Shown: in pieces, positions 29,201-45,319 of the stretch
How positions within the stretch are numbered: the stretch's first letter is position 1
Layout of the letters: every line of letters begins with the position of its first letter
From: a virus
Taxonomy: Duplodnaviria; Caudoviricetes
Strand: one strand, 5' to 3'
IMG/VR virus record: IMGVR_UViG_3300013936_000011
Coordinates: 64,001-128,000 of that record
Length of the DNA: 64,000 bases
Made by a program: the position numbers and the translations under genes
Notes under the pieces: model-generated
Database searches by the model: none
What the model was told of the DNA's origin: nothing
Seen by the model: the letters and a program-made list of their open reading frames with translations, nothing else

Positions 29201-31227
29201 AGGGCAATGTTGATTCTGGTATCGTAGGTATGAGATTTGGTAAAAAAACATTCGAACTTAAACTTGACGGTACTTTTAAATTTGGTAATGATTCCAGATA
29301 CATATCTTTTGATGACGAAGGATTAAAAGTATCTGCTATCTATGGTGAAGAAATTAAAGCATATAATCTTGATGTATATAAACGTAGTAAAGATACTGAA
29401 GGCAATTATGTATATGATAACAAGAATAAGACTTTTAGTGTAGATGATGAAGGTAACATATCTATAAAGGCTAATAGCTTTAGTTTAACTCCAACGACTG
29501 CAAATCAACAACAATTAATCAATGGTTTAACAAATAGTTCTACAAATAGCGAAACCAATGGTTTATGGATTAATGATGGCAAATTGAATATCAATGCTGA
29601 TAATATAACTACTGGTAAAATGAGTGCTGGACGAGTAAATATAACTGACGGTTCATTCTTGATAGGAACAGAAGATAAACCTGTATTTTGGATTAAGAAT
29701 AATGATGAAGTAATAATCAAACCTAGTCAATTCTTATTAACAGATATAAATGGCAATACAGTTATAGAAGTAAATGAAAATAAGAAAGTAACTATGAATG
29801 CTAGCTATATAAATACTGGTTCTATAAATGGTAAATTTATAGAAGCTGAAACTATCGATGTTTCACATCTTGTAGCTGGTACAGGTGCAACTAATATTAA
29901 CAATATATTGGATCAAGGCGGTATAGCATGGTCTAGTAAATTTGGTAGTGAAACTTCAGCTACTGCAATAACAGATTGTAAATTAGGATACGATGTAGCT
30001 CAAAACATAACAGATAAATATTCTGTAGGAGGTATTGTTAATGCCGATGAGGTAAACGAAACAGCTTATATAGAAATAGATTTAGGAAATACATATAAAA
30101 TATCTTCTTCAACTATTTATTTTGATACTAGTGCTGCTCCTGATAGTGGTGTTACATATTACTATAAAATTAAATATTCATATAACGGAACTGATTGGTA
30201 TTACATTGTTGGTAATGAATATAGTTCATATCAATCTGGATGGGCTACAGGCATTTTACCTAATCAGATAGCTCCATTGACTAATAATTTTAATGCAGAA
30301 TCTGGTGTTGAATATATAAATGCTCGTTATATTAGATTATGCCTTGGCAATCTTGGAACTGATCCTATTAACATGAAAGTAATATCATGGCATTTATATA
30401 GTTCTGGTAGATCTACGATAATAGACAGCTCTGGTATTACTACAGGTGCAATCAAAGCCGAACAAATTGCAGCAAATAGTATTAGTACGGAACATATCGA
30501 TATACTTGATGATTCATTTACTTTTACAGATAATGATGGAAACACTGTATTCGCTATAACAGAAGTTAATGATAATACTACTGTTGAAATAAGACCAGAT
30601 ACGTTTATATTAAAAGACGATAGCGGTAATGTTGGTGTAAGTCTTAAAGATGGTAAACTAGATATTGATGCTAGCAATATTACAACTGGTAAGTTAAAAG
30701 CTGATTATATACAAGGCGGTACTTTAGACACTTCGGTTATAAAATCAGGCTCTATATCTGGAAATCAGATAGATGCTAGAGAATTAAAAGTAATCAGAGA
30801 TGGCGAAAATGGACAAGTAACTACTTTACAAATAACTAATAATGGTGCTATTTATGCCAATTATGAAGACTTTATGTTAGTATCCAGTGATGGAACTAAA
30901 AACGTAGGAGACTATACAGATGCTCTACGCGATGACATAGAAGAATATATTCGATTTAGTGGAGACACTATCACTCTTGGTAAAGAAATTATGGAAGATG
31001 GTACAGCTAATAAGTTTAAAGCTAAATTAAGTTCTACATCACTTGATTTCATGGAAAATGATGTAGCTGTAGCATCTATATCAAACAACAGAATGTTTAT
31101 TACTAATGCACAAGTTAAGAATGTTTTAACTATTGGTAATTCAGCATCTGGAAATAATGTCGGTGGGTTCTTCGATTGGACTCTAAGACAAAATGGACAT
31201 TTATCATTGAAATGGAGGGCTAATTAA
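26275..31227 (+). CDS. Large central-fibre/tail-tip protein (Ig-like, CBM-like, coiled coil, gp58-like beta-helix repeats, discoidin-like domain)
   Basis: KNLIRNSAF CBM-like start, repeated NA..I.(T/S)G.I.A..I motifs, F5/8-type-C-like YIEIDLGNTYKIS...YKIKYS.NGTDW...ARYIRL (about 29980-30405), C-terminal YIRFSG..ITLG...ISNNRMFITNA...NGHLSLKW. Confidence 0.75.
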   Translation: MISYKALTRASITLQLIDDIGLYDSEIFSSNGLLLQPYDRSTTLTGIIYKNNRDITSEIKDIRWTMWSPDASNYATDEEWNENHKGSNVIEVTSDEIDSKCVIQFEAYKKNKMNEDELIACSHITLVDINDLIAVTEKPDNPYDGQLWVDTSTDPATIWVYKNGKWNRVGTVDAIVKNLIRNSAFTTFTNKYYDVVGSTVLSYTPSVFQRGSYNWLKLQSDVAIDAERGVSYTVFDEDIKTNSDYSFQMLAYATSATSAVDNRINVRICSIDESNTETALYEYKDLEITTDVCKFFTSFKTLPNTKTIKIYITGRNGSVYDFNISHLALYNTANDYPWQPHPDDASLILDQETVFNALTNNGTVKGLYSIRDPKTGQLQIYFNANYIQSGTIKGDRIDARNLTVIRDDGIKTLEITDKGEVNLIVNSFKLSSTGQTIEDFILDSIDLNDSGQLKYLLKQIQKESSEADAIYTELYNTDELKDATYSKETATDLDLSMYTNEASSGQQRARRRSIITPGSDTGEEKLPSFVLGQSKLGYAVLGETGSGNLKTILYNVKRSYNGDTDRLIAKIEERIAEIEKGGKAKTQAIAIYSNDEIIEESTLEDLYTVYIDKYSLLKRVFVICQDAVGIVRLTVVTDRWSKLEVETNQILSEVGEVKKYYAGPEGEEPTLLEAIGSIASEKITPEAIVNIVQNGVVDVDKDPQKVSEIISQTVINQTASDIDMSAENLKQGLKSSFDLSINGIKLGTKDADGNTTLIDMHGDTVQIAAPQIDLSGYVTFSKFGDEFNKNFTTSFDKSFNDSFGKKFDDSFTINLNKAFKGELPDITTINGGLITTNTILGNALVTNTITTDKLAADVLTANNIKTGNLQGTNSKSYFDLDNGTFRLANADKTFLTFDGSKLSFGDVAASDLGILVDDVTGVLPSWVKDWNGRTVEIDNENIVGVRAFLGHKEGTELTGIGLGVDLGTNTGEEEFKGNVDSGIVGMRFGKKTFELKLDGTFKFGNDSRYISFDDEGLKVSAIYGEEIKAYNLDVYKRSKDTEGNYVYDNKNKTFSVDDEGNISIKANSFSLTPTTANQQQLINGLTNSSTNSETNGLWINDGKLNINADNITTGKMSAGRVNITDGSFLIGTEDKPVFWIKNNDEVIIKPSQFLLTDINGNTVIEVNENKKVTMNASYINTGSINGKFIEAETIDVSHLVAGTGATNINNILDQGGIAWSSKFGSETSATAITDCKLGYDVAQNITDKYSVGGIVNADEVNETAYIEIDLGNTYKISSSTIYFDTSAAPDSGVTYYYKIKYSYNGTDWYYIVGNEYSSYQSGWATGILPNQIAPLTNNFNAESGVEYINARYIRLCLGNLGTDPINMKVISWHLYSSGRSTIIDSSGITTGAIKAEQIAANSISTEHIDILDDSFTFTDNDGNTVFAITEVNDNTTVEIRPDTFILKDDSGNVGVSLKDGKLDIDASNITTGKLKADYIQGGTLDTSVIKSGSISGNQIDARELKVIRDGENGQVTTLQITNNGAIYANYEDFMLVSSDGTKNVGDYTDALRDDIEEYIRFSGDTITLGKEIMEDGTANKFKAKLSSTSLDFMENDVAVASISNNRMFITNAQVKNVLTIGNSASGNNVGGFFDWTLRQNGHLSLKWRAN
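28621..28707 (+). repeat. F-x-x-x peptide repeat (8 Phe at exact 4-residue spacing)
   Basis: FGDE FNKN FTTS FDKS FNDS FGKK FDDS F; Phe codons at 28621, 28633, ... 28705. Confidence 0.9.
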
Positions 31228-33632
31228 TGAGTACATCATGCAAATTGACGGTAACAGAAACTAGCGTCGACCAAGCGAATAATAAGAGTACTATATCAGT
31301 AAAGCTTACTGCAACAACTACTGGACAATCGCACAATAATTATACATCAGGATCCTATTTCCCTAAAGGCACTATCACTGTAAATGGTACTTCGTATAGC
31401 ATAGGACGTACATTGCCATATAACTCTACTGTTACTTTATATAATAAATCTCACACTATAACACATAACTCTGACGGGAGTAAGAGCGTAACTGTTAAAT
31501 ATAGTTTCAATACACATATATATGATGGAACATTAACAGGCAGTAAGACTTTAAAACTAACAGATATATCGATAGATAAAAAATCGACACCAACTGCTAG
31601 CTCAAGTAGTGTTTATATTGGCAGTTCTATAACTATAGATATGAATCCATATATGAGTTCATACACTCATTCAATAAGCTATAAATTTAATGGTGGCACT
31701 ACAAATATGACTAGTGGACTTAGTGCAACAAGTGGAATTAAGGACTCATGTACATTCACACCTCCATCAAGTTTATTGAATTATATGGACCCGGATTCTA
31801 CATCAGCTAATGCAGTGTTTACTGTAAATACTTATAAATCTAGTGGAACATTAATTGGTTCAAGTACATTTACGGTTGCAGTTAAAACATCTGCTACTTC
31901 TTATCCTCCTGTTATGGGAAGCATTTCTGCTTCTGTATATAATAATGGTTCACCGTTTAGTAATATATATGTTAAAAATTATAATGGCGTTAAATTATCT
32001 TTTAGCGCCACTGCTCAGCAAAATGCTGGTATTGTTTCTTATAAAATAACAGGTGGTGGAGTCAATACCACAGTTACTAGCAATACATATACAATACCTA
32101 AATTAATATCATCAGGTAGCATAACTTATACTGTTACTGCTACTGATACTAGAGGTGCTACTTGTTCTGGTAGCGTTAAAATAACAGTTAATACATATTC
32201 TCCTCCTTCTATAAATAACGTAACTACTGTACGTTGCGACCAAAATGGCACTCCGGCGGATGACGGAAAATATATTAAAGCAGATGTATCTGCTACGTAC
32301 AGCAATATAGGAAACAATCAAAGTGGTTCTATAATAGTCAAAATACAATATGCATCAAACGGTGGAAGCTATAATTCAGGAAATAATTTAACTGTTAGTA
32401 AAAGTTCTGGTACTGCTATGGCTACAGGAATAATTGGCGGAAGTCTTAGCGATGGATCTTATAATGTTTTATACACTATAACTGATGCATATAATAAACA
32501 AACAACTTATGAAGATATACTAAGTACTATGTTCTATGTTCTAGATATAAATTCTGGCGGAACAAGTGTTGGTATAGGTGCAGCAGCTAGTGATGCTAAT
32601 CACGTATTAACTATAGGGATGGAGCAGATAGTTTTCCCTAATACTACTTCTTTAGATTTAGGTGTTAGTGGACTCGATTTTGCTTCTGATACATTCCAAA
32701 TAACAAGTAAAGACACTACATTAAATAACACTTCTTTAGCATTAAACAATACTTCTTTAACGTTAAAGAATAAAAACACAACTTTAAATAGCACTGTCAG
32801 CATGACATTAGATGCAACTACTTTGAATTTAGATTCTACTGCTATGAATATAAATTCAACTAGTGTAACTTCAAGTGCTGAATTTTTAGAATATACGAAA
32901 TCTTTGACTATAACTTCAAGCGGTATAACTATAAATAATAATGGCATTAATGATATACAGTTTAATTCTGATTATGTACGTATAAAAGAAGGCGCAACGT
33001 TAGCTGCAGTTGGTTGGGCAAGTAGCGGATCTACTTCAACTAATAGTTTTAATTTAGGACGTATATATTGCGAAAGCGGAATTGATATGCCAAATAATAT
33101 AGCTTACAGATGTATCAATAGTACAGATGCAATACTGCCTTGTATGTTTATAAACGCTTCTAATTATTGTTTCTTAAGTCATAACGATTTAACTGGTACA
33201 GTTTTGCGTGGCAAGACTGTTAAGTTATCAAGTGCTTCAGGTACTACCGTAACTTCAGACGAAAGGGTTAAGAAGGATTTCAAAACACTTGAAGGATATG
33301 AAGATTTCTTTATGAGTTTAAAGCCTATAGCATATAAATATCTGACAGGAACTAGTGACAGATATCATGTAGGATTTAAAGCACAAGACGTTAAAAGTTC
33401 ATTAGAAAATAATAAGCTTACTACTCAAGACTTTGGAGGTTATGTTGAGACAGATCCTGATACAGATTTTTATATGGAAACTTTAGGATATGATCCATTT
33501 GATGGAGGTAAAATGTGCGCATTATCTTATGAAGAGTTTGTAGGTTTGGCTGTATATATGATTCAAAAACAACATGACCAAATTGAAGAATTAAAAGATC
33601 GTGTTGCAGTATTAGAAAGAGGTGATAACTAA
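31227..33632 (+). CDS. DUF859-like minor tail/receptor-binding protein with C-terminal peptidase S74 intramolecular chaperone
   Basis: SVDQANNKSTI...HNSDGSKSV...TLKLTDI, VTATDTRG, YSPPSI....VRC..NG...DDG.YI (DUF859 pattern); SDERVKKD...LKPIAYKY...HVGFKAQDV...LSYEEFV....IQ plus coiled coil from 33255. TAATG stop/start overlap. Confidence 0.85.
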   Translation: MSTSCKLTVTETSVDQANNKSTISVKLTATTTGQSHNNYTSGSYFPKGTITVNGTSYSIGRTLPYNSTVTLYNKSHTITHNSDGSKSVTVKYSFNTHIYDGTLTGSKTLKLTDISIDKKSTPTASSSSVYIGSSITIDMNPYMSSYTHSISYKFNGGTTNMTSGLSATSGIKDSCTFTPPSSLLNYMDPDSTSANAVFTVNTYKSSGTLIGSSTFTVAVKTSATSYPPVMGSISASVYNNGSPFSNIYVKNYNGVKLSFSATAQQNAGIVSYKITGGGVNTTVTSNTYTIPKLISSGSITYTVTATDTRGATCSGSVKITVNTYSPPSINNVTTVRCDQNGTPADDGKYIKADVSATYSNIGNNQSGSIIVKIQYASNGGSYNSGNNLTVSKSSGTAMATGIIGGSLSDGSYNVLYTITDAYNKQTTYEDILSTMFYVLDINSGGTSVGIGAAASDANHVLTIGMEQIVFPNTTSLDLGVSGLDFASDTFQITSKDTTLNNTSLALNNTSLTLKNKNTTLNSTVSMTLDATTLNLDSTAMNINSTSVTSSAEFLEYTKSLTITSSGITINNNGINDIQFNSDYVRIKEGATLAAVGWASSGSTSTNSFNLGRIYCESGIDMPNNIAYRCINSTDAILPCMFINASNYCFLSHNDLTGTVLRGKTVKLSSASGTTVTSDERVKKDFKTLEGYEDFFMSLKPIAYKYLTGTSDRYHVGFKAQDVKSSLENNKLTTQDFGGYVETDPDTDFYMETLGYDPFDGGKMCALSYEEFVGLAVYMIQKQHDQIEELKDRVAVLERGDN

Positions 33633-34186
33633 TGACTGAGTATACTCTATCAGATTTTAAAAATCTTAATTTCGTCGACGGCAACATATTAAATGCTTAT
33701 GAGATGAATATTTTAAAACAATTCGTTTCTACTGCATATCAAGCAACTCTTACTCAATTAGCTGTCAATAACATTCATGTTGGACCAGAACCACCTACTC
33801 AAGAACAGTACGGTGAAAACTATAAAAACATGTTATGGATTGATACTAATGATAATGCTGATGCTGGTATTGACGATTCTACAATGGGAATTATATCTGA
33901 TTTAACAGATACAGTACAAAACCTAAGTAAACAACTAGAAGAGTTACAAAGACAACTTGCATTGATAATTGCAGGTGGTGGAGGCACAGGACCTATCAGC
34001 AAGCTCAATGATTGTCTTGAATTGGAAGACGGAAGTTTATTCACGCTTGAAGATGGTAGCTTCTTGAAACTTGAATTTGCCTCTAAACCTGATGACGATA
34101 AAGATTTATCTTTTGAAGGTTGCGGTTTAGCTTTAGAAGATGGATCAATAATGATTACAGAAGATGGTTATATTTTATTGCTTTAA
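33632..34186 (+). CDS. Putative fibre adaptor protein (coiled coil, C-terminal EDG repeats)
   Basis: N-terminal FVDGNILNAYEMN, LWIDT motif, coiled coil, Gly linker, four LEDG/TEDG repeats; TAATG overlap with the upstream gene. Confidence 0.55.
   Translation: MTEYTLSDFKNLNFVDGNILNAYEMNILKQFVSTAYQATLTQLAVNNIHVGPEPPTQEQYGENYKNMLWIDTNDNADAGIDDSTMGIISDLTDTVQNLSKQLEELQRQLALIIAGGGGTGPISKLNDCLELEDGSLFTLEDGSFLKLEFASKPDDDKDLSFEGCGLALEDGSIMITEDGYILLL
34016..34183 (+). repeat. (L/I)x(L/T)EDG peptide repeats
   Basis: LELEDGSLFTLEDGSFLKLE ... LALEDGSIMITEDGYILLL: two blocks of two EDG turns. Confidence 0.85.
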
Positions 34187-34241: not shown

Positions 34242-36797
34242 ATGGCAACTGAAACTAAAAAATTAAGTGCGTTAACAGAAGTAATTACTGTTAATGATAA
34301 TGACTATTTGCTTATCGTACAAAACGGTGATAGCAAAAAAGTACAAGCTAGTAAGCTACAAGGTGCCAAGAATTTAAGCGAAAAATATGTTGATTTAGTA
34401 TCAACTGATAATACTGATAAGAAATTTAGAATGATATTAAGAGACGATGGTGAACCTATCGTTTATCCAATGGAAGTATTTACTGCTGAAGGTTGGAAAC
34501 AAGGTGACAATTTAAACGTGCCTTTTAAAACTGCAGCTGGCTCAGGTATGGCAAAAGTAGCAACTGCTGATATAGAAACTTTATTTATAAATCAAATGTA
34601 TGGTGGAGGTACAGGTACTGCAGGTACTGTAGAAACTTCTGTTAGCCATAGCTTTGTTGAATTATACAATAATAGTGAAGTAGACATAAATCTTAAAGGA
34701 TTATATTTAAACTATAAAGCTAAATCAGGTACATGGCAATCATTACCTTTAAGAGGTATAATACCAGCTCACTGTTCTTTCTTAGTAAGAGGCGGAGCTC
34801 ATTATAATATAAATAGCGACTTAGTAAGACTTAAAATAAAAGATTATGATCAAAGCTGGGATATACAATTTTCTGATGAAGGTTTTTCTATGTATCTATC
34901 AATAGGAGAATGCGCTGAAGAAACTCCTGTTAAATTCACTAAAAGTAGTACAGATAATAAAATAATATCAGCTAATCAACAATGGGTTGATGTAATAGGA
35001 GCTGGCGGGTTAACTAGTGAACAAACAGTCCCTCTATATGATGGAGAACAGTTTATTATGGGTATGAGTAGAAATACTGCTGTACGTAGAAAAACATTTT
35101 TTAATAATAGTACTAGTTTATCTAATTGCGAAATAATTGATTACAAAACATGTAACGTTGATGCGTACAGACCTAGATGTACAAGAGATGGAGTCTGGAA
35201 AGAAAATGTAAGTGAAACACAAATAAAAAGCGATATACCTAATATAGTAAATATGAGTTTTGGTAAAGATGAATTTACTAGAACATTTACTTGGCAATCA
35301 ACAGATTTCGATAAAGGCTTTTTAAAATATAAAAAAGAAGGAGACAAAGAATGGACTAAAGTAGAAGCTGAATCTGATGTTATAAGCCAATATGACAAAC
35401 AAGTGCAAGTTCATCATGTTATAATAAGAAACTTAACTCCTGGTACTTATTATTACAAAGTAGGTACTACAGGATACTACAGTGATGAAGAAGCATTCGA
35501 CGTTAAAGATTATTCTACAGATGGTTTTAAATTTTTATGGACTACAGACCAACAAGGATGGAATGGATTCGAATATGATATGTGGGACGAAGCATTTAAA
35601 GGTATTAAATACTATGAATATACTGATGGTGTTCCTAACTTTGATTTTCATATGAATACAGGAGATATGTCACAAAATGGTAACAGATATTTTGAATGGA
35701 AATACTATTTTGATTATGCTGACGATACTGTTAAGAATATGCCTCATGTATGTACTATAGGAAACAATGACCTTGTTGAAAAGAAATACGGTTATGTATT
35801 TGATTACTATAATACATTAGATGATGCTCCAAGATTAGCAGATGTGAGTCCATACGATAAATTTGCTACAACTGGATATGGTTCTCCAGCTGAAGAAAGA
35901 AATGAAAAGATGGTATCAACTTGCAGCTATACTCTTGGTGGATTCTGTCACTTCATAAATCTTAATTCTAATACTGAATATATGTATGAAGGATTAAATA
36001 CAGATCAATTCTTAACTAAAGAATGCGCATTCCTAGAAAAAGACTTACAAGAAGTAGCAGCTAAGCGTGCTAGTGGAGAAATAAAATGGGTTATAATCTA
36101 TATGCATCTTTCTCCTATGACAATAGTTAGAACAAAGAGATTACAAAGATTCATACCTATAATTGAAAAGTATAAAGTAGATCTTGTTTTATGCGGACAT
36201 AACCATACTTATTCTAGAAGTATACCTGTATATAGCGGATATATGGGAGACATAGCATATGATGGTAAAGGTAAATACACTACATCTCCTTATAACGATT
36301 ATGTAACTAAAGTATCAACAGGTTCAAGTGAGTTATTATTAGTAGACGAAACTCAAAGCGATGGTTCTGATATTAATAGAAAACCTGATAAAGTTAATGG
36401 TACACATTATATTATGCTTCAAGCTGCTGGATATAAACTTAGCGGTAAAGAAAAAGCAATAATATTCTCTGAAAGTCAAATAGATGCTAAACACATGTCA
36501 CGTAATTGGGAAGAAGATCCTAACGGTGCTACTACAGTACTTAGACCATGGTGGTATAGCTATGCAGGTAAATTACCTGTTCAACCTACATATGCAATGC
36601 TTAATGTTACTCCAGAACAAATAGAATATACTGGTTATTATTTTACAGACTTATCTGTTAAGGATCCAGACACAGGACTTGTTATACAACCTAAGTTTGA
36701 TTCTACTAAAAACGGTAGAGCTCAATTCGATCATCTTGTTATCACATATGCAGAAAGACATCCTAGCGAAACTGAATCTGATAACACTACAGAATAG
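34242..36797 (+). CDS. Lamin-tail-domain + FN3 + calcineurin-like metallophosphoesterase (purple acid phosphatase-like), with fibre-type N-terminus
   Basis: LTD: FINQMYGGG...FVELYN.....INLKG..L.Y...IPAH..FLV; PAP N-terminal FN3: RTFTWQS...HHVIIRNLTPGTYYYKVG; MPE motifs TDQQ, NTGD, GNND, MHLSP, GHNHTYSRS. Confidence 0.85.
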   Translation: MATETKKLSALTEVITVNDNDYLLIVQNGDSKKVQASKLQGAKNLSEKYVDLVSTDNTDKKFRMILRDDGEPIVYPMEVFTAEGWKQGDNLNVPFKTAAGSGMAKVATADIETLFINQMYGGGTGTAGTVETSVSHSFVELYNNSEVDINLKGLYLNYKAKSGTWQSLPLRGIIPAHCSFLVRGGAHYNINSDLVRLKIKDYDQSWDIQFSDEGFSMYLSIGECAEETPVKFTKSSTDNKIISANQQWVDVIGAGGLTSEQTVPLYDGEQFIMGMSRNTAVRRKTFFNNSTSLSNCEIIDYKTCNVDAYRPRCTRDGVWKENVSETQIKSDIPNIVNMSFGKDEFTRTFTWQSTDFDKGFLKYKKEGDKEWTKVEAESDVISQYDKQVQVHHVIIRNLTPGTYYYKVGTTGYYSDEEAFDVKDYSTDGFKFLWTTDQQGWNGFEYDMWDEAFKGIKYYEYTDGVPNFDFHMNTGDMSQNGNRYFEWKYYFDYADDTVKNMPHVCTIGNNDLVEKKYGYVFDYYNTLDDAPRLADVSPYDKFATTGYGSPAEERNEKMVSTCSYTLGGFCHFINLNSNTEYMYEGLNTDQFLTKECAFLEKDLQEVAAKRASGEIKWVIIYMHLSPMTIVRTKRLQRFIPIIEKYKVDLVLCGHNHTYSRSIPVYSGYMGDIAYDGKGKYTTSPYNDYVTKVSTGSSELLLVDETQSDGSDINRKPDKVNGTHYIMLQAAGYKLSGKEKAIIFSESQIDAKHMSRNWEEDPNGATTVLRPWWYSYAGKLPVQPTYAMLNVTPEQIEYTGYYFTDLSVKDPDTGLVIQPKFDSTKNGRAQFDHLVITYAERHPSETESDNTTE

Positions 36798-36808
36798 GAG
36801 TGATGTAA

Positions 36809-39800
36809 ATGTCTATTAAATACCATAACGACAAGACTGGCAAATGGGAAATCATCGCTTCTAACAAAGCTTCTGATATAGCGATTAATGATAATGAAAG
36901 TAATTTTGATTCTAATAATGTAGAAGGAGCTTTAAAGGAAGTTGGTGGATTAGCAAAAGCCAATAATATAAAATTAAGTGAAATAGACGGAAGAGTACAA
37001 TACATAGAAGAACATGGAACTACAGGGGGCGGCGGTAGCGGAGGCGGCGCCCTTCCTACTATAACTTCAGAATATAGTGCTACTATAATAGATGCCAATG
37101 AAGAACAAATAATAAAAATATTCTTTTCTTCTCCTAATCTAGGAAGCGGTACTTGTTATATAGTATGTAATGATATAGAATTATTAACCGTTCCAGTTGA
37201 CCAAGGATATAATAATATAACTATACCAGCTCTTGGTAGCGGTACATTTAAATTATCTTTATATGTAAAAGACAGAGCTGGATTATTATCTAATACTTTA
37301 AACTGGAATTTAACAGCAGGTGGATTAACTGCTACTTTAACTATGAATACTAGTCTAGACTATTCAATTACTGATAGAATTCTTATGACTTATAATGTTG
37401 AATATTCATTAGATGATGAGATAACAATGTATTTAACAGTTGATTATGATGATTATACAGTCATTTGTTCTAAAGGATATAACAGTTATAATTTGACAGG
37501 CCTAGGAGTTGGGATACATAAAGTATCATTCTATCTTAAAGCTGGACCATATTCTACAAAAACTCAAACATTTAATGTTGTAGTAGTTAATACAGAAGAC
37601 TTATATGTATCTTCTACTACTGATTCAAAATTAAGTATGGAAGAGGGAGATCCATTATCTATTAACTATCGTATATCTAAAAAGAGTGCTGAATATTTTG
37701 ATGTACAGATTACTGTAGACGATAAATTAGTATCACAAAGACAAAGTATAGTTGGTAACTATTATTATAACAATAATACATTGCCAATAGGTACCCATGT
37801 AATTAAGATATCTGTCACTTCAGAAAGTGGCGAATCTTCAGAACTTGTATTTAATGTTGAAATAACTGCAGGTTCTTATATTAGAAAACAAATAGTTACT
37901 GGTGGGCTAATTGCTAACTGGGATGCTACAGGTTTATCTAATCAAGATGCTAATAAAACTAAATGGGTAGATAAAGTAAGTGGTATAGAAGGTGAATTAT
38001 ACAACTTTAACTATTCATCTAATGGATGGATAACTGATAATGATACTAACGAAACATATCTAGCATGCAATGGTAACACGTACGTTAAAATACCATATGC
38101 TCCTTTTGCAAATAATGTTACAACAGGATTTACTATAGATATATTATTTAGAACTAGAGACGTCGGAGATATAGATGCTCGTGTTCTTGATATAACAGAC
38201 ACACTTGCTCCTTACAAAGGAGTTTATATAGATACACAAAATGCTCATTTAATATCTGCTATTCATGATATTAATTCAGCTGTTGGTGATGACGAATGGA
38301 CACGTGTAACGTATGTAATAGATAGACTTAATAAGTTTGGTAAAATATATATCAATGCAATATTAAGTTCAGCATTTTATTTAACAGATGATTCTAGTGG
38401 TAGTTCTATTAGATATGAAGATTTTATGCATAATGAGTATATCTATTTAAATAGTTTTAAAGGTACAGGACACTATGGTTCTTGTGAGATAAGATGTTTA
38501 AGACTATACGAAAGAGAACTTAATGATGAAGAAGTACTACAAAATCATATAGCCGATATAGTAAATACAGCTGAACAAAAAGCAAAATATGATTTCAACT
38601 ATAATAACAATGGCATTCCTAAGATGTATTTCTGGGGAGATACTACTGAAATGTCATTAACACAAAAGAAAACTATGCGTATAAAATACGTATCTCCTAA
38701 TAATGAAGAATACGGCGAAAGCTTTGATTATCCTTATTGCAAAGTATACTGGCAAGGTACATCTTCACTTACTTATGTAAGAAAGAATTATAATATAGAA
38801 TTGTTTGATGAAGACCAGAGAGCAATAAAATATACTCCTTTTAAAACTGGTAAAGCAGAAAATGTTCTATGTTTAAAAGTTAACTACATGGAAAGTTCAA
38901 ACGTAAATAACGTAGGACTTGCTGAGTTTGCTAATAACGGATTATATTCTAAGAAGAATCCTGCACAAGAATTGGATCCAGATGTGAGACAAACTATAAC
39001 AGGTTTCCCTATCTTAGTATATATCAATGATGAATGTATGGGACTATATGATTTCAACTTAGATAGATATAGTACTAACTCATTCGGATATGACCTAATC
39101 GATGAAACATTAGCATATGAAGTTTCAGCTAATACAGATGCTACAGCTGGTGCATTTAATAAATGGACTTCTGCTAGTGGACAAGGTAAAATAGATTATT
39201 ATGCTTCAGACTTTGAAGTAATTTATCCACCTTCTAAGATGAATGGTAATGATGATTATGCAGATTTAATAACTTTAATAGAATTTGTTAGTGATGCAGA
39301 TGATGAGTATTTTAAAGCTAAGTTTGATGAATTCTTTGACAGGGAATCTGTATTTAGATATTTATTATTTGTATTAGTATTTGGTATGGTCGATTCACTT
39401 GGTAAGAACATGAAGCTCGTTACTTTCGATAGAAAGAAATGGTACATACAATTATACGACTTAGATACAGCTATGGGTCTTGACAATACTGGTGCTTTAA
39501 CATTTGATGTTGATATAGAAATAGAAAAAGGTACATTCAATACTTCTACATCTCAATTATGGACTAAAATATTAAGAGTATTTGAAGCAGAATTAAAACA
39601 AGAATATGCTAGTATGAGAAACGAACAGTTCACTCTTAAAAACATAATGCATTATATATATGATGAACAAATGTCTAAGATACCTGAAGTTTATTATAAT
39701 GAAGCTGCACAAGTTAGATATTTAGACTTTGGCGGTAAATTCTTATATGCATTACACGGTAGTAGAGAATATCAAATCAAAAGATGGATTAGAGAAAGAT

Positions 39801-42800
39801 TATTATATGTAGATACATTATTAGGTTACGATGCTTCTACAGCTGACTATATTACTGTCAGAGGAGATATGGATGGTTTTGTACATCTTGATATACAAAC
39901 TTATTCTCCTATGTATTTAACAGTTAAATGGAGAGATCAAGCCAATAATTCAGGTAGCCAAATACTTAAGATTAAACGTGGAGAGACTATAAGATTTGAA
40001 AAAGAACTTCATGCAACAGACCAAGAAATTCTTATATATGGTGGTCAACACTTAAAGAGTATTGGTGACGTATCCAATACAAGCCCTAAACATTTATTAT
40101 TATCAGCGGCACCTAATCTTATAGATTTACGATGTACTGCAGATACCTTATTCAACGTTTCACTTAGTACTTGTAAAATGATGCAAACAGTAGATTTGCA
40201 TGATTGTAGTAGACTTGGTGTAGACGCAAGTAATGCTGTTCTTGATTTATCTGGTTGTGAAAACTTAAGAACTGTAGATATACGTGGTACTAAAATCACA
40301 TCAGTAACTACTTCAATTAAAGGTGGTAACTTAGAGTCTATTTATTATCCTTATTCTATACAAGCTATAGAATTGTATAATCAAACTAATCTATTAACTC
40401 TTTCATTGCCTACAAGCGTAGTTTTTAATGAAAGACCTGATCATGAATTAAATAAACTACCTTCTAAACTGTCTACATTTATAATTAATAATTGTCCTAA
40501 CTTAAAGACAATACGACATGAAGAAAGCGAATATGAATACTATAAAGACAATATGTTCTTGCCTTTATTCTATGCCAATAATATAGAAATAACAAATTCA
40601 TTTAATAATCTTGATACATTTGATTTCTCATATTGTATGAATCTAAAGAGCTTAAAATTAAGCAATCTGGATGGATTAAAGACATTAAGATTAAATAATT
40701 TAGTTTATAATGATAGTTCATATAGTAAACTATCTGAAGTTGATTTCTCTAAACTAGATAATCTAGAAACATTAGAAATGAAAGTAACAGATGAATCTAT
40801 AGGAGAATATACAGCTAAGCCTGCATTTGCTCAAAACACAACTTTAGATTTAAGTAAATGTACTAATTTAAAAAATATATTATGTAATTATGCTATACAT
40901 GGTTTATCAGAATTAAGACTTCCTACTAGCATAGACAAGCTAGTATTTGATAATACTTTTGATAAAACATATTCAGATATCAATAAGATTTACATATCTA
41001 GTACAGTAGGAGCTACGAATACTATTGATTTATTTGGTTCTAAATTACATGAGTTTAATATAAAAACTATAAATAAAATAAAAGCAATAACTAATCTTTA
41101 TCTATATGCTTATCATAAAGAAGATGTAGACGTAAATAAATACAGAGACAATATAGAAATACCAAATGCAACAGTACAAGGTGTATATGATTTTACGAAT
41201 TATGCAGATTCTGATTTCTCTAATTTATTTAAAGATAAGGATTTGACTAATATAAAATTAGTTAGTTCAGAATATTTACCATTAGTAGTTAATCTTGAAA
41301 GCTGTTTTGAAAGATCTACTGTAAGTTCAGATACAGGACTTGCTACTTTTTTTACTAAGCTTACTGGCGTTACAAATATTAAGAACTTATTTAAGAATTC
41401 TGTAGGATTAACTAATGGTGTATCAATGGATACTAGTAAAGTAATTAATGCATATGGAGCATATTACGGATGTAGCGACTTAGTATCTGTTCCAGAATAT
41501 AATCTAGAAAGTGCTATCGACATATCATACATGTTCTATAAATGCTCATCTTTAGCCGATATATTCACATTCAATGTTCCTAAATGTATATCTGCTAATT
41601 ATACATTCTATGATTGTAAGAGTTTAGTCGAATTAATGTTTAGCTCAGATAATAAAATATCTTCTGCTACACATATGTGTGATAATTGTTCTAGTCTTGA
41701 AAGAGTTACATTGTTTAATACAGCTACATTAGCTTATATGTCTTATATGTTCTATCAATGTAAAATGCTTAGTGCTTATCCTGATATAGATACTACTGCA
41801 TTAAAAGATGTTAACTATACATTCTATAACTGTATCGCTATGCAAGGTACACCTGATGGTACAGGTTTATGGAATAACAGTAATATCAAAAACTATTCAT
41901 TATGTTTTGCAGGATGTATAAACTTAACTAACTTCTATACAGAAATACCTGTTGAATGGGGTGGAGGTATGGAAGAAATAGGTGTTAACGACCTTGAATT
42001 CTCTATTATACCTACTACAAATCAAACAGATGTTATAGGAGATTACTTACCAACATTCTACTCTACATATAATCATAATATGGTTAATCAATGTTCTAGT
42101 GCATGGACAGAACATGTTGCTAAAACATCTATTAAATTAAAAGAACCTATAGCAGTAACTGCTGGTGAAACATATAATTTAACTCAAACAACTTACGGAA
42201 CTATAAGAGTAGTTGCTTGTGACGCTAGCGGAAATATAAGAACAGATATTGTTAGAAACTCATATTTCCAAAATAAAGAGTTTACGGTACCAGCTGGAGT
42301 AGATTATATAAACGTAATTTACAGCTCATATGGCGATAAGTATATAGCAAGAACTGCTAACTTAAGTATACTTAAAAAGGATGCACAAAATGTAGAAAGC
42401 GGATATACGAATATAATAATAACTAAGACAGACGGTACAATAACAGAAAGTCTAAAGACTACAATTAATGAAGTATCTAAAGTGTATATTAAGTTTAATT
42501 CAGATACTACTTATATAAGCTTTAGAAACCACGACTTCTTACAATCTGTATCTTCTATAGATTTAAGTAATTGTCCAGTATGTGACTATATGTTCTTAAA
42601 CTGTCCTAATTTAGTTAGCGTAGGTAGCTTAACTACTGAAGGCGTATTAAGCATGGATAGTATGTTCTATGGTTGTACAAAACTATCTGAAATATCTTCA
42701 ATAGATTTATCAACTTGTATTAACATATCTAGAATGTTCTACGGCTGTACTAAATTAACAGATTTATCTTCTATAGATTTAAGTAAGATATTATACATAG

Positions 42801-45319
42801 AAGAAGCATTCACTAATTGTGTTTCTTTGGCCGAAATAAATATTAGAAATCTAGTTAATGTTCTCAGCCTTTATAAAACATTCTATGGATGTACAGCTTT
42901 AACAAGCATACCAGAATTAAATATATCTAATTGTGATTCATTAGAATATGCATTCTATAATTGTAAGAACCTTACAAGAATAGCAAGTATAAATACTGAT
43001 ACGTTAAAATATATGAGCTATGCTTTTTATAACTGTAATTCCTTACAAAATATTCCTACATTTGATACTTCTAAAGTAACTAATATGGATTATAGCTTCT
43101 ACGGTTGTGAAACTATAGCTTCAATACCAGCATTTAGTACATCTAATGTTTTAACAATGAACTATACATTTGCTAAATGTACTTCATTAATAGAAATACC
43201 TATATTTGATTATATTGGATTGGTAGCAGTACAAAATACATTTGAAAATTGTCAATCATTAACTTCAATAACAATGGCTAATACTAATAATCTAACATCT
43301 ATACCTAATATGTTTTACAACTGTTTAGCATTAGCTTCTATAGATGGTTTGGATACAGCAAATGTAACAGATATGTCTTATGCATTTTATAATTGTGCAT
43401 CTTTAGCAAGAATGGAATTAAACGTAAAATCCGTAACTTCTATGGCTTATGCGTTCTATGGATGTACTAAGTTAAAAGCTATAGTATTTACTGATAATTC
43501 TACAACTACAGCATGTACAACATTACTTCATGCTTTTGATGGTTGTCAATCACTTGAAAGCATAAGTTCATTAGATACTTCAGTTTGTGAAGATATAACA
43601 TACATATTTAATAACTGTCTAGTATTAAATGCAATAGGTTTAGCTTCTTGGGATATTTCTAAGATAACAAGCTTAAATCATTCATTTACTAATTGCAAAG
43701 CTTTATCTAAACAAAAAGAAACTGAAGGAGCAGACCCAGCTGATTTAAATGCATTATTATCTTGGGATGTAAGTAAGATAGTATCATTTAATAGTACATT
43801 TAAAGGTTGGGATTGTACTAACTTAGATCTTAGTAATTGGACTACTAGTGCAGCTACTAGAATGGATTATATGTTCGAAGACTGTAAGAATCTTCAAACT
43901 ATAATTGGAATAGATGCATTCGTAATGAATACTGTAACATCTATAACTTGTATGTTTAGAGGATGTAGTAGTATGACTTCTCTAAATCTTAATACTTGGA
44001 ATACAACATTATTAGAAGATGCTTCAAATGCATTTGAAAGTTGTTCATCTCTTGAAACACTTGAAATAGGAAATTGGAACGCTTCTAATATACAAAGCTT
44101 ATATTGTTTCTTATCTGATTGTACAGCTTTAAAACAATTAGATATAAGTAGTTGGGAGTTAACATCTATAACTAATCTGGAAAGAATGTGTTATGCTTGT
44201 GAATCTATGACTGATTTTAATATAAATACTACTTATATAAAAGATAATGTAATAAGTTCTATGTCATATATGTTGTATCAATGTACTAGTTTAAATAATA
44301 TACCAACAGACTTTTATATAAAAGGAGCTGCTAATTATGTATTTGCTTTATGTTCTGCTTTAACATATATAAAAAATGTATATGTATTAAATTCAACATC
44401 ATCATATCAATTGTTCAGAGGATGCTCTGCATTAGACACAGTCGATAAAATAGTATTTACTAATTGTAATAATATATCTAATTTATTTATGGGATGTTCA
44501 TCTTTAACTACCATCAATACATTCACTGTAACTAATACTGCAGGTAATACAAATATGCAGAATGTTTTTAATGATTGTGCTAAATTGACTACTTTAAATA
44601 ATAGTAGCATAGATTCTAGTGTTTACACTTTATACTATTGCTTCAATGGATGTATTGCATTAACAGATTTAGATCTTACTAATTGGAATATAACAAATTG
44701 TGAAAACTTAGCATATACATTTAATAACTGTCAAGCACTTAAAACAATAACAGTTGGAGCTAACTGGAATACATCTAAGGTTAAAAACTTTAACTCAACA
44801 TTCTCTGGATGTTTAGAACTTTTAGTTGTACCAGCTCTTGATTTAAGCTCAGCTACTGATATGACAGGAATGTGTAATGGATGTAAGAAGATGACAAAAA
44901 TAGATGGTATGGAAACTACAACATACAATTCTAGTAAAGTAATAAATATACAATACGCATTTTATGATTGTCAAAATCTATTATACTTACCAGTATTAAC
45001 TACAACTTCTGTATCTAATGCAAGTTATACATTCTTTAACTGTATTAGTATGACAGGCGAACCACTAAGTGGATCATACTGGAACAGTTCTATTTCATCT
45101 TATTCATATTGTTTCTATAATTGTAAAGCATTAGACAATTATGCTGCTATACCTGATAGATGGAAAGGAATAGGTATGACAACTTATGGATTAAGAATGG
45201 CTCGTGCAGTTGTTCCTCAAAATACTGATGAAGTAGTTGTATTACAAGCAGAAATATTAGAAAAGCAAAACGAATTAAACATGCTTATTAATCAAATGAA
45301 TTCACTATTAAGTGAATAG
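36809..45319 (+). CDS. Giant fibre-like protein: Ig-like - LamG - CotH-kinase-like - LRR - two BspA/DUF285-type repeat blocks
   Basis: N-terminal ASDI...D....F.S.NVEGALKE fibre motif; LamG-like FTIDILF...WTRVTYV...KIYIN...IRCLRLYERELN; CotH-like QGTSS...KNY, LKVNY, GLYDF, DSLGKN, YDLDTAMG (about 38610-39830); many MFYxCxxL repeats. Confidence 0.82.
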   Translation: MSIKYHNDKTGKWEIIASNKASDIAINDNESNFDSNNVEGALKEVGGLAKANNIKLSEIDGRVQYIEEHGTTGGGGSGGGALPTITSEYSATIIDANEEQIIKIFFSSPNLGSGTCYIVCNDIELLTVPVDQGYNNITIPALGSGTFKLSLYVKDRAGLLSNTLNWNLTAGGLTATLTMNTSLDYSITDRILMTYNVEYSLDDEITMYLTVDYDDYTVICSKGYNSYNLTGLGVGIHKVSFYLKAGPYSTKTQTFNVVVVNTEDLYVSSTTDSKLSMEEGDPLSINYRISKKSAEYFDVQITVDDKLVSQRQSIVGNYYYNNNTLPIGTHVIKISVTSESGESSELVFNVEITAGSYIRKQIVTGGLIANWDATGLSNQDANKTKWVDKVSGIEGELYNFNYSSNGWITDNDTNETYLACNGNTYVKIPYAPFANNVTTGFTIDILFRTRDVGDIDARVLDITDTLAPYKGVYIDTQNAHLISAIHDINSAVGDDEWTRVTYVIDRLNKFGKIYINAILSSAFYLTDDSSGSSIRYEDFMHNEYIYLNSFKGTGHYGSCEIRCLRLYERELNDEEVLQNHIADIVNTAEQKAKYDFNYNNNGIPKMYFWGDTTEMSLTQKKTMRIKYVSPNNEEYGESFDYPYCKVYWQGTSSLTYVRKNYNIELFDEDQRAIKYTPFKTGKAENVLCLKVNYMESSNVNNVGLAEFANNGLYSKKNPAQELDPDVRQTITGFPILVYINDECMGLYDFNLDRYSTNSFGYDLIDETLAYEVSANTDATAGAFNKWTSASGQGKIDYYASDFEVIYPPSKMNGNDDYADLITLIEFVSDADDEYFKAKFDEFFDRESVFRYLLFVLVFGMVDSLGKNMKLVTFDRKKWYIQLYDLDTAMGLDNTGALTFDVDIEIEKGTFNTSTSQLWTKILRVFEAELKQEYASMRNEQFTLKNIMHYIYDEQMSKIPEVYYNEAAQVRYLDFGGKFLYALHGSREYQIKRWIRERLLYVDTLLGYDASTADYITVRGDMDGFVHLDIQTYSPMYLTVKWRDQANNSGSQILKIKRGETIRFEKELHATDQEILIYGGQHLKSIGDVSNTSPKHLLLSAAPNLIDLRCTADTLFNVSLSTCKMMQTVDLHDCSRLGVDASNAVLDLSGCENLRTVDIRGTKITSVTTSIKGGNLESIYYPYSIQAIELYNQTNLLTLSLPTSVVFNERPDHELNKLPSKLSTFIINNCPNLKTIRHEESEYEYYKDNMFLPLFYANNIEITNSFNNLDTFDFSYCMNLKSLKLSNLDGLKTLRLNNLVYNDSSYSKLSEVDFSKLDNLETLEMKVTDESIGEYTAKPAFAQNTTLDLSKCTNLKNILCNYAIHGLSELRLPTSIDKLVFDNTFDKTYSDINKIYISSTVGATNTIDLFGSKLHEFNIKTINKIKAITNLYLYAYHKEDVDVNKYRDNIEIPNATVQGVYDFTNYADSDFSNLFKDKDLTNIKLVSSEYLPLVVNLESCFERSTVSSDTGLATFFTKLTGVTNIKNLFKNSVGLTNGVSMDTSKVINAYGAYYGCSDLVSVPEYNLESAIDISYMFYKCSSLADIFTFNVPKCISANYTFYDCKSLVELMFSSDNKISSATHMCDNCSSLERVTLFNTATLAYMSYMFYQCKMLSAYPDIDTTALKDVNYTFYNCIAMQGTPDGTGLWNNSNIKNYSLCFAGCINLTNFYTEIPVEWGGGMEEIGVNDLEFSIIPTTNQTDVIGDYLPTFYSTYNHNMVNQCSSAWTEHVAKTSIKLKEPIAVTAGETYNLTQTTYGTIRVVACDASGNIRTDIVRNSYFQNKEFTVPAGVDYINVIYSSYGDKYIARTANLSILKKDAQNVESGYTNIIITKTDGTITESLKTTINEVSKVYIKFNSDTTYISFRNHDFLQSVSSIDLSNCPVCDYMFLNCPNLVSVGSLTTEGVLSMDSMFYGCTKLSEISSIDLSTCINISRMFYGCTKLTDLSSIDLSKILYIEEAFTNCVSLAEINIRNLVNVLSLYKTFYGCTALTSIPELNISNCDSLEYAFYNCKNLTRIASINTDTLKYMSYAFYNCNSLQNIPTFDTSKVTNMDYSFYGCETIASIPAFSTSNVLTMNYTFAKCTSLIEIPIFDYIGLVAVQNTFENCQSLTSITMANTNNLTSIPNMFYNCLALASIDGLDTANVTDMSYAFYNCASLARMELNVKSVTSMAYAFYGCTKLKAIVFTDNSTTTACTTLLHAFDGCQSLESISSLDTSVCEDITYIFNNCLVLNAIGLASWDISKITSLNHSFTNCKALSKQKETEGADPADLNALLSWDVSKIVSFNSTFKGWDCTNLDLSNWTTSAATRMDYMFEDCKNLQTIIGIDAFVMNTVTSITCMFRGCSSMTSLNLNTWNTTLLEDASNAFESCSSLETLEIGNWNASNIQSLYCFLSDCTALKQLDISSWELTSITNLERMCYACESMTDFNINTTYIKDNVISSMSYMLYQCTSLNNIPTDFYIKGAANYVFALCSALTYIKNVYVLNSTSSYQLFRGCSALDTVDKIVFTNCNNISNLFMGCSSLTTINTFTVTNTAGNTNMQNVFNDCAKLTTLNNSSIDSSVYTLYYCFNGCIALTDLDLTNWNITNCENLAYTFNNCQALKTITVGANWNTSKVKNFNSTFSGCLELLVVPALDLSSATDMTGMCNGCKKMTKIDGMETTTYNSSKVINIQYAFYDCQNLLYLPVLTTTSVSNASYTFFNCISMTGEPLSGSYWNSSISSYSYCFYNCKALDNYAAIPDRWKGIGMTTYGLRMARAVVPQNTDEVVVLQAEILEKQNELNMLINQMNSLLSE
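41200..45170 (+). repeat. Two blocks of BspA/DUF285-like leucine-rich repeats, each with its own C-cap
   Basis: About 22-26-aa (M/A/T)FYxCxxLxxI repeats; caps CFAGCINLTNFYTEIPVEWGG (ends about 41965) and CFYNCKALDNYAAIPDRWKG (ends about 45168). Confidence 0.8.

Follow-up and report, generated by a model that had tools for sequence, protein, structure and literature searches.

A purple-acid-phosphatase-like metallophosphoesterase and a giant CotH-type kinase-domain protein encoded side by side in a large phage: a candidate tail-appendage cassette

The DNA analysed (the window) was a stretch of 64,000 nucleotides, positions 64,001 to 128,000 of the IMG/VR virus record IMGVR_UViG_3300013936_000011. 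It comes from a large, uncultured gut phage that probably infects Firmicutes. Two adjoining open reading frames on the plus strand were studied, one for a metallophosphoesterase (P0001) and one for a giant protein (P0002). Their coordinates in the open reading frame list agreed exactly with those of the first-pass annotation. The features of the locus were as follows:

33632..34186, + strand: small upstream gene, 184 aa; LEDGS-type repeat at the C-terminus; helix followed by a poly-Gly segment
34242..36797, + strand: P0001 gene, 851 aa; N-terminal adaptor, lamin-tail-like domain (LTD), FN3-like domain, purple acid phosphatase (PAP)-like metallophosphoesterase and C-terminal beta-rich extension
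34242..34415, + strand: exchangeable N-terminal adaptor of P0001, residues 1-58 (the segment used for the profile)
34572..34817, + strand: lamin-tail-like domain of P0001, residues 111-192; Pfam LTD, E 3.3e-7, 31.1 bits, below the cut-off of 34.3
35238..36212, + strand: FN3-like PAP N-domain and binuclear metallophosphoesterase of P0001, residues 333-419 and 445-657
36809..45319, + strand: P0002 gene, 2836-aa giant, fibre/adhesin-like, from the open reading frame and its translation
36809..37057, + strand: N-terminal module of P0002, residues 1-83, with a poly-Gly hinge at its end
38072..38536, + strand: LamG/ConA-like lectin domain of P0002, about residues 422-576; assignment probable, not firm
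38606..39898, + strand: CotH-type atypical kinase domain of P0002, residues 600-1030; key residues K659, K690, D862, N867, D884 and D886
40016..41908, + strand: classical LRR solenoid of P0002, about residues 1070-1700; Pfam LRR_EndoS
42506..45178, + strand: BspA-type LRR_5/DUF285/PARCEL repeat array of P0002, about residues 1900-2790

The gap between the P0001 and P0002 genes was 11 nt, and the GGAG Shine-Dalgarno motif of P0002 overlapped the P0001 stop codon. A GGAGG Shine-Dalgarno motif lay 8 nt upstream of the P0001 ATG. Since the gap is this short, both genes have Shine-Dalgarno motifs and no terminator was found between them, the two genes are predicted to be co-transcribed within the tail-fibre block. 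The upstream neighbours were tail proteins according to PHROG and Pfam matches: a phrog_372 protein with a Peptidase_S74 chaperone, an F5/8-type-C tail protein and tail-fibre PHROG matches. The tail-module setting proposed earlier was thus supported. Inspection of the translations showed no signal-peptide-like hydrophobic stretch at the N-terminus of P0001 or P0002, again as proposed. Homologues of the 184-aa protein were located directly 5' of the esterase gene in many related loci, and its helix and GGGG segment matched the profile of the P0002 N-terminal module. It had no match in Pfam, PHROG or NCBIfam. In this clade, the 184-aa protein probably belongs to the module as a third component, and no other widely conserved partner or substrate gene was found in the related loci. 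A megablast search of the 11-kb region against phage records gave no match. Where gene copies were interrupted, Rfam detected no group I intron.

P0001 matched Pur_ac_phosph_N at residues 333-419 (47.7 bits, Pfam cut-off 30) and Metallophos (PF00149) at residues 445-657 (36.4 bits, cut-off 21.5). All calcineurin-like motifs I-V were present in the expected order. The AF2 model of P0001 had a pLDDT of 80 and a pTM of 0.75, and its best Foldseek matches were plant purple acid phosphatases (E about 1e-19), followed by PhoD and SMPDL3A, consistent with the proposed phosphoesterase fold. In the combination of LTD, FN3 and phosphoesterase domains claimed before, the FN3-like and Metallophos parts were above the Pfam cut-offs, but the LTD remained sub-threshold (31.1 versus 34.3 bits). 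The LTD was also sub-threshold in crAss002 gp19 and DAC22_88, and PF00932 (LTD) is recorded for several full-length relatives of P0001. Fusion of an LTD with CotH was found neither among the close relatives returned nor in six sampled short CotH relatives.

In related phage loci, the profile of the P0001 adaptor matched proteins other than esterases at their N-termini; these proteins were 172-1298 aa long, and the recurring part corresponded to the first ~45 residues of P0001. A tblastn search of the 53-aa P0001 N-terminus against phages gave no match. The esterases of phage G, crAss002 and DAC22 lacked the adaptor and had different N-terminal regions instead. An exchangeable adaptor would be a modular trait typical of fibre and spike proteins. 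The first-pass annotation had read a fibre-type anchor at the start of both genes. This agreed with the recurrence of ~45 aa of P0001 on non-esterase proteins and of ~80 aa of P0002 in all esterase-linked giants.

The active site of P0001 consisted of D436-Q-Q, G-D475-x-S-Q478-N, G-N508-N509-D, H622 and G-H653-N-H655, and these motif residues were invariant across 27 homologues of about 43% identity. In the alignment with wheat PAP, GNND of P0001 was opposite GNHE and GHNH was opposite GHVH, with N509 at the position of the histidine. Six of the seven PAP metal-ligand positions were kept; the Fe(III)-binding tyrosine of GDxxY was missing. Motif II of P0001 is GDMSQ, with an invariant Gln478 at the tyrosine position, and glutamine was found there in all linked esterases. 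GNND was likewise present in all CotH-linked esterases, whereas unlinked bacterial relatives have GNHD. The motif-III histidine supports leaving-group chemistry in Ser/Thr phosphatases and PAPs. Because the linked esterases lack both this histidine and the PAP tyrosine while unlinked relatives keep GNHD, the alignments argue against a role of the linked esterases as efficient phospho-Ser/Thr phosphatases. Loss of the histidine could make the esterase slow or binding-only. Many invariant Arg and Lys residues were located near the esterase motifs.

Plant PAPs (kidney bean PAP, lupin PPD1 and wheat phytase) share with P0001 the fold and the architecture of an FN3-like N-domain plus metallophosphoesterase. 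P0001 differs from them in having the lamin-tail-like domain, the adaptor and the C-terminal domains. Assignment of P0001 as a bona fide purple acid phosphatase was rejected, as the chromophoric tyrosine is replaced by Gln478 and the histidine of GNH(D/E) by Asn509.

P0002 is composed, in order, of an N-terminal attachment module, Ig-like repeats, a LamG-like lectin domain, a CotH-type kinase domain and an LRR/PARCEL solenoid of ~1,700 aa. Residues 1-954 matched phrog_9915 (E 5.5e-212). The earlier claim that CotH lies between a LamG domain and LRRs held for the LRRs, which matched Pfam LRR_EndoS and LRR_5. The LamG part was weaker: Laminin_G_3 scored E 1.8e-4 and 22.1 bits against a cut-off of 27.6, although profile positions 3-150 of 151 were covered. 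The corresponding region of DAC22_89 matched the Laminin_G_3 family too. The profile of the LRR solenoid matched internalin-J and plant LRR receptors in the PDB. The repeat array matched the Pfam families DUF285 (E 1.6e-97 in 11 stretches) and LRR_5 (E 6e-45), and NCBIfam labels these repeats as PARCEL repeat surface protein. The array is presumed to be the ligand-binding end of P0002, and these domain matches suggest that P0002 is probably a giant fibre or adhesin.

Pfam CotH (PF08757) matched P0002 residues 649-972 with 70.7 bits (cut-off 23.8). The AF2 model of the domain had a pLDDT of 93.7 and a pTM of 0.92. Foldseek matched this model to 5JDA/5JD9 at E 5e-18, and VIA aligned 343/358 residues with B. 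cereus CotH at Z 32.7 and an rmsd of 3.3 A, the next fold having Z 12. Pfam, Foldseek and VIA thus all supported the CotH fold suspected from the sequence. A single-sequence phmmer search of the domain against PDB sequences returned nothing relevant and a profile search was required; the PDB search with a profile made from whole giants was dominated by LRR matches.

The catalytic-type residues described in the first-pass annotation were all found: K659/N660 (RKNY), D862-N867 (DSLGKN) and D884/D886 (YDLD). D862, N867, D884 and D886 were invariant in 32 domain sequences at 28-54% identity. In the profile alignment to 5JD9, D862 and D884 fell on two aspartates 23 residues apart, with the spacing of D228/D251 of B. 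subtilis CotH. CotH is a proven Ser/Thr kinase with spore-coat proteins as the precedent, and D228Q and D251A are kinase-dead (PMC7821199). The P0002 domain is thus predicted to have a complete catalytic set.

The P0002 domain has the same fold as Bacillus CotH (5JD9/5JDA; B. subtilis CotH), and the catalytic Asp, the Asn four residues on and the metal-binding Asp are kept. It differs in that identity is only 14-16%, that the domain forms part of a 2836-aa phage protein, where a lectin-like domain precedes it and LRRs follow, and that the invariant K690 is opposite an Asn in B. cereus CotH. Its kinase function is predicted from sequence and model. A substrate of the CotB/CotG type is another difference: none was found in the genome for P0002, where the one Ser/Lys-rich tract is in another protein.

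The CotH giant was directly downstream of the esterase in 34/34 esterase-centred IMG/VR loci and in all 25 testable phage-type esterase clusters (90% identity). These linked loci included phage G gp352/353, crAss002 gp19/20, DAC22_88/89 and Clostridium/Bacilli MAG contigs. An esterase preceded the giant in only 15 of the 41 giant clusters, and the other 26 were without it. The linkage is therefore one-sided: no esterase cluster lacked the kinase giant, but the giant often occurs alone. The expectation that the two genes would be linked across unrelated phages was borne out as synteny but not as mutual co-occurrence. Two of the conditions named beforehand as refuting the idea, a missing match to the CotH fold and a lack of synteny, did not apply.

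All esterase-linked giants, among them phage G gp353, crAss002 gp20, DAC22_89 and those of loci L114 and L115, had the P0002-type N-terminal module; of the 26 esterase-less giant clusters, only 1 had it. Locus L036, which is esterase-less and keeps the module, has an open reading frame without a Pfam match in the esterase slot. As judged from these sequences, the module tracks the presence of the esterase, which indicates module co-inheritance. A tblastn search of the 74-aa P0002 N-terminus against phages gave only weak matches, to the N-termini of C. difficile myophage proteins.

The cassette was seen in Crassvirales, DAC-type Bacteroides phages, Firmicutes jumbo phages and Bacillus phage G, and by esterase matches only in Lak megaphages. 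Few accessory modules of large gut phages are shared as widely. In Crassvirales, pairs labelled 'phosphatase' and 'internalin-like / transferase' are cr52_1 gp10/gp11, crAss002 gp19/gp20 and IAS virus gp084 with gp083-081. These pairs and DAC22_88/89 agree with the present pair in gene order, domain architecture, GNND, the DSLGKN and YDxD motifs and the N-terminal module of the giant. They differ in identity (24-27%), in their longer esterases (about 1150 aa) with different N-terminal regions, and in giants whose CotH domain is undetected by Pfam. Their carriers are Bacteroidota podoviruses, whereas the present phage is large and its host probably belongs to the Firmicutes.

Among cultured phages, the best matches were the adjacent genes of Bacillus phage G, gp352 (a metallophosphoesterase) and gp353, which are in the same order. 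The identity of gp352 was 31% across 89% of P0001, and that of gp353 was 32% across P0002 residues 1-1295. The C-terminal repeats differ, and gp352 is without the P0001 adaptor. The accessible phage G and crAss002 papers mention neither gp352/353 nor gp19/20 and contain no proteomics of the homologues. Hankyphage p00-type DGR variable proteins of Bacteroides phages share the LamG-CotH-LRR core, which aligns with P0002 366-1232 with invariant catalytic residues, but the esterase partner and the N-terminal module are both missing. CotH-containing DGR proteins carry a hypervariable C-type lectin end and have been termed unstudied (PMC8008677; bioRxiv 10.1101/2024.11.15.621889).

The explanation that best fits these results is a conserved tail-appendage cassette, in which the kinase acts at assembly and the esterase outside the cell, the two being coupled but forming no symmetrical, reversible writer/eraser system. 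We give this explanation an even chance of being right. What the analysis shows is the folds and catalytic residues, the synteny of the genes, the co-inheritance of modules and the setting in a tail module; the virion location, the timing, the substrates and any activity are inferred. The CotH kinase would act in the infected cell during assembly, where ATP is available; outside the cell or at the host surface there would be no obvious ATP source. It may phosphorylate the appendage itself or a partner, analogous to the action of CotH on spore-coat proteins that later face outside. The esterase on the released virion would act on a phosphate ester, either in a wall or capsule polymer of the host or on the phosphorylated fibre; its action is placed outside the cell because this class of enzyme is typically secreted. 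P0001 would then be an obligate partner of the giant, with the small upstream gene as a possible third member in this clade.

Some observations count against the cassette: in phage G the two genes are not part of the main tail module, the present genome yielded no CotB/CotG-like substrate, and the esterase may be slow or binding-only.

The pair could instead be an enzymatic receptor-binding fibre directed only at the host envelope, in which the esterase cuts phosphodiester-linked polymers (teichoic acids, phosphorylated capsules) and the kinase fold binds phosphorylated glycans. This follows the logic of tail spikes and would suit the LamG and LRR/PARCEL binding domains and the invariant Arg and Lys residues near the esterase motifs. 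Crassvirales reviews count phosphatase domains among tail-spike enzymes (PMC10136315), and in S. intermedius, Pel polysaccharide-dependent aggregation depends in part on a secreted CotH-FN3 protein (PMC12345266). However, invariance of the catalytic Asp, Asn and Asp at 28-54% identity is unexpected for a pure binding module, and the cassette is carried by Bacteroidota phages as well as Firmicutes phages, two host groups that differ in surface polymers. We consider this explanation unlikely.

An antagonistic writer/eraser pair, as first suggested, would have the kinase add and the phosphatase remove the same Ser/Thr phosphate on host-surface or virion proteins. In its favour, the two enzyme classes occur in strict adjacency and with conserved residues in their active sites, and the Ser/Thr kinase activity of CotH is proven (PMC7821199). 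A kinase that needs an eraser would not often occur without the esterase, so the 26/41 kinase-giant clusters lacking it weaken this idea. It is further weakened by the GNND site of all linked esterases, without the motif-III histidine that the GNHD of unlinked relatives retains, and by the expected lack of ATP at the host surface. Such a symmetrical pair therefore appears quite improbable. In a further alternative, the proteins would be no surface fibres but effectors, ejected or acting inside the cell in some other way, that alter host phosphorylation at an early stage of infection. The position of the phage G pair among non-structural genes would agree with this, but we consider it very improbable: PARCEL/BspA-type LRR arrays and LamG domains are characteristic of adhesins at surfaces, in other phages the C-terminus of the family is diversified by DGRs (bioRxiv 10.1101/2024.11.15.621889), and here the genes lie within the late tail-fibre block.

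A bolder form of the tail-appendage cassette would be a virion-borne phosphorylation system extending from crAss-like podophages to jumbo myophages. CotH would load phosphate on an appendage or glycan at assembly, and the GNND esterase would process it, or a phospho-polymer of the host, at the cell surface, so that adsorption would be under the control of phosphate chemistry. This extended form is speculative and, in our judgement, doubtful. Should the kinase domain prove active, this would be the first case of a kinase incorporated into the receptor-binding fibre of a phage, and the role of CotH in building phosphorylated extracellular protein layers would be extended from spores to virions. 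The GNND active site and the one-sided linkage provide concrete hypotheses that are cheaply testable in culturable carriers such as phage G, crAss002 and DAC22.

The gene pair is already known in public records, where it is labelled 'phosphatase' and 'internalin-like' and the giant family is called receptor-binding, internalin-like; the present phage is a further instance. The same giant family is the DGR-diversified variable protein in Bacteroides phages (bioRxiv 10.1101/2024.11.15.621889).

The window covers bases 64001–128000 of a single 146.6-kb contig with a G+C content of 31.7%, in which no terminal repeat was found. Since near-identical IMG/VR contigs reach 149–185 kb, the source phage genome is probably incomplete. 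Every large ORF of the region is on the + strand. Both genes described in the first-pass annotation were recovered as exact ORFs, and their tail-module setting was upheld: tail and tail-fibre PHROG families, a DUF859 protein bearing a Peptidase_S74 intramolecular chaperone, and a protein with an F5/8-type-C domain are coded 5' of the pair. The genes considered here are as follows.

31227–33632: tail protein of 801 aa (phrog_372, DUF859) with a C-terminal Peptidase_S74 intramolecular chaperone domain
33632–34186: small upstream gene, whose 184-aa product has a segment of helix and poly-Gly and, at its C-terminus, LEDGS-type repeats
34242–36797, +: P0001, the esterase, 851 aa
36809–45319, +: P0002, the CotH giant, 2836 aa
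45334–51567: 2077-aa protein directly 3' of the giant

A Shine-Dalgarno motif precedes the P0001 and P0002 genes alike. Since only 11 nt separate the two genes and no terminator was found in this gap, they are predicted to be co-transcribed. The Peptidase_S74 domain of the 801-aa protein is typical of trimeric, self-cleaving fibres or spikes. The 2077-aa protein had no Pfam or PHROG match and was conserved in L015/L016-type contigs only. The contig end codes a lysin of the amidase type that has an SH3-like tail, as read from the translation. Contigs in Clostridia, Clostridium, Bacilli, and Anaeroplasma MAG bins carry full-length homologues of the esterase; therefore, a Gram-positive gut host is likely.

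The distribution of the pair was one-sided. An exhaustive search gave 3015 representative proteins with a CotH domain of the P0002 type (276 below 1e-30), most of 2000–3000 aa with the domain near residues 600–1050. The esterase and the giant were adjacent and in the same order in four cultured or named phages: Bacillus phage G (gp352/gp353), crAss002 (gp19 "phosphatase"/gp20 "transferase/LRR"), cr52_1 (gp10 "phosphatase"/gp11 "internalin-like, receptor-binding"), and DAC22 (genes 88/89). The public record of IAS virus lists gp084 "phosphatase", then gp083/gp082 "internalin-like" and gp081 "transferase", putative counterparts of P0002 by label. Esterase homologues were also present in Lak megaphages. 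A CotH giant lay directly downstream on the same strand in 34/34 esterase-centred IMG/VR loci. When esterases were clustered at 90% identity with genome-collection loci added, a giant followed in 25/25 testable phage-type clusters, mostly with gaps of −28 to +125 nt, so the synteny proposed earlier was borne out; the five clusters without it were distant bacterial LTD proteins. The esterase accompanied the giant in only 15/41 CotH-domain clusters. On a quick ML tree, the esterase-linked label required three changes, compared with a shuffled mean of 12.3.

The first ~80 residues of the giant were found in every esterase-linked giant and in 1/26 esterase-less clusters; the esterase gene and this N-terminal module are thus inherited as a unit. 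Such co-inheritance would be expected if the two docked with each other or at the same virion site. No conserved neighbours of the cassette were found beyond the small upstream gene, which many loci keep in the same place, directly 5' of the esterase gene. Its 184-aa product matched no known family, shares the helix and poly-Gly segment with the N-terminus of the giant, and may serve the appendage as a third subunit or as an assembly factor. The first ~45 residues of P0001 also occurred on unrelated proteins of related phages and so form an exchangeable adaptor, as is characteristic of fibres and spikes. Three tail-region proteins (19685–21079, 21190–22896, and 63687–64958, the last ORF extending past the window end) share an MLTK(T/K)QT... 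N-terminus with different remainders, a further set of exchangeable adaptors in this phage.

The giant begins with the N-terminal module (residues 1–83), which ends in a poly-Gly hinge, followed by Ig-like repeats (weak Pfam matches), a sub-threshold LamG-like domain, the CotH domain (residues 600–1030; Pfam, 70.7 bits), classical LRRs, and a long BspA-type LRR_5/DUF285/PARCEL array. The CotH domain was predicted with a pLDDT of 93.7 and a pTM of 0.92. Its sole strong structural match was B. cereus CotH (Foldseek E 5e-18; VIA Z 32.7, rmsd 3.3 Å, 343/358 residues), which confirmed the assigned fold; PI4KII, HipA, CtkA, and Fam20 came next at about Z 12 (VIA). 5JD9 was the sole PDB match of a profile from 32 domain-only sequences. 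When this profile was aligned to 5JD9, D862 and N867 fell on the catalytic D-x4-N loop, and D884 matched the first Asp of WDYD. The two aspartates of 5JD9 lie 23 residues apart, as do D228 and D251 of B. subtilis CotH, in which D228Q or D251A abolishes kinase activity (PMC7821199). Q649, G650, S652, S653, N660, K690, D862, N867, Y883, D884, and D886 were invariant across 28–54% identity. By sequence and model, the CotH domain is very probably catalytic.

P0001 carries LTD (residues 111–192, just sub-threshold), Pur_ac_phosph_N (333–419), and Metallophos (445–657) domains by Pfam. Its AF2 model (27 homologues in the input, pLDDT 80) was closest to plant purple acid phosphatases (PAPs, E about 1e-19), then PhoD and SMPDL3A. 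Five motifs (D436-Q-Q; G-D475-M-S-Q478-N; G-N508-N509-D; H622; G-H653-N-H655) were invariant among the 27 homologues, at about 43% identity. In a residue-level alignment with wheat PAP, GNHE corresponded to GNND and GHVH to GHNH. P0001 retained 6/7 PAP metal-ligand positions, whereas the Fe-binding Tyr was replaced by Gln and the motif-III His by Asn. GNND and DQQ-type motifs occurred in every CotH-linked esterase aligned (from the window, from phage G, crAss002, and DAC22 as gp352, gp19, and DAC22_88, and from five metagenomic lineages, down to 27% identity), whereas unlinked bacterial LTD-esterase relatives (Clostridia MAGs, Mucilaginibacter, Chitinophaga) retained canonical GNHD and GDxx(D/E). 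The remodelled site is thus a derived trait that members of the phage cassette share, and its strong constraint argues for a real but altered chemistry rather than decay. The motif-III His is also missing from other active metallophosphoesterases, LpxH (GNRD) and YfcE (GNCD), whose substrates are diesters or pyrophosphates. Proteins of ~1300 aa with LTD and metallophosphoesterase domains on Clostridia MAG contigs (L127:9881-13888 and L131) keep GNHD, have no CotH neighbour at these loci, and are likely to be cellular relatives of the phage-encoded enzyme.

A coupled but asymmetric model is preferred, because linkage is one-sided (25/25 vs 15/41), the motif-III His is missing in exactly the linked esterases, and ATP is inferred to be lacking outside cells. 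The giant would be a receptor-binding appendage, in keeping with its DGR-diversified relatives and with the label "receptor-binding" used by annotators. By analogy with the building of the spore coat (PMC7821199), the CotH domain of the giant would be active while virions are assembled in the infected cell, where ATP is present. The esterase, of a secreted type, would be carried by that appendage and work extracellularly, its target being either a phospho-polymer of the host or the phosphorylated fibre. In S. intermedius, a CotH-FN3 protein that is secreted contributes to Pel polysaccharide-dependent aggregation (PMC12345266), which leaves room for a rival reading in which CotH domains would modify or bind glycans outside the cell. 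The first-pass reading, in which the kinase adds phosphate and the esterase removes it, is weakened by the same three points that favour the asymmetric model.

CotH kinase domains in phage proteins were previously noted as "currently unstudied" (PMC8008677), and Bacteroides phages have variable proteins of >2000 aa with CotH/CBM/LRR (bioRxiv 10.1101/2024.11.15.621889). Public records already label both members of the pair (e.g., cr52_1, crAss002, and IAS virus). Therefore, the window's pair is a Firmicutes-associated addition to known, unstudied cassettes. No paper discussing the esterase–CotH linkage was found. The present analysis adds the asymmetry of linkage, the GNND synapomorphy (GNHD in unlinked relatives), the joint inheritance of the esterase and the N-terminal module of the giant, and the small third gene.

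A 722-aa protein coded outside the window (G000:C1:25249-27417, on the source phage contig) contains a low-complexity tract rich in Ser and Lys (30 residues, about 70% of them S, K, or R), which loosely recalls the Ser-rich Bacillus CotH substrates. Many contigs of related jumbo phages have the esterase gene and the CotH giant each split into 2–3 pieces by inserts of ~1.0–1.7 kb, as at L104:10001-19780 (IMG/VR contig 3300045988_152729) and similarly at L029-L034, L045, L055, L062, L063, L100, L105-L113, L120, and L122. No group I intron was found in the split genes by Rfam. The insert ORFs carry NUMOD3, CapR, and treble-clef zinc-finger domains and look like homing endonucleases.
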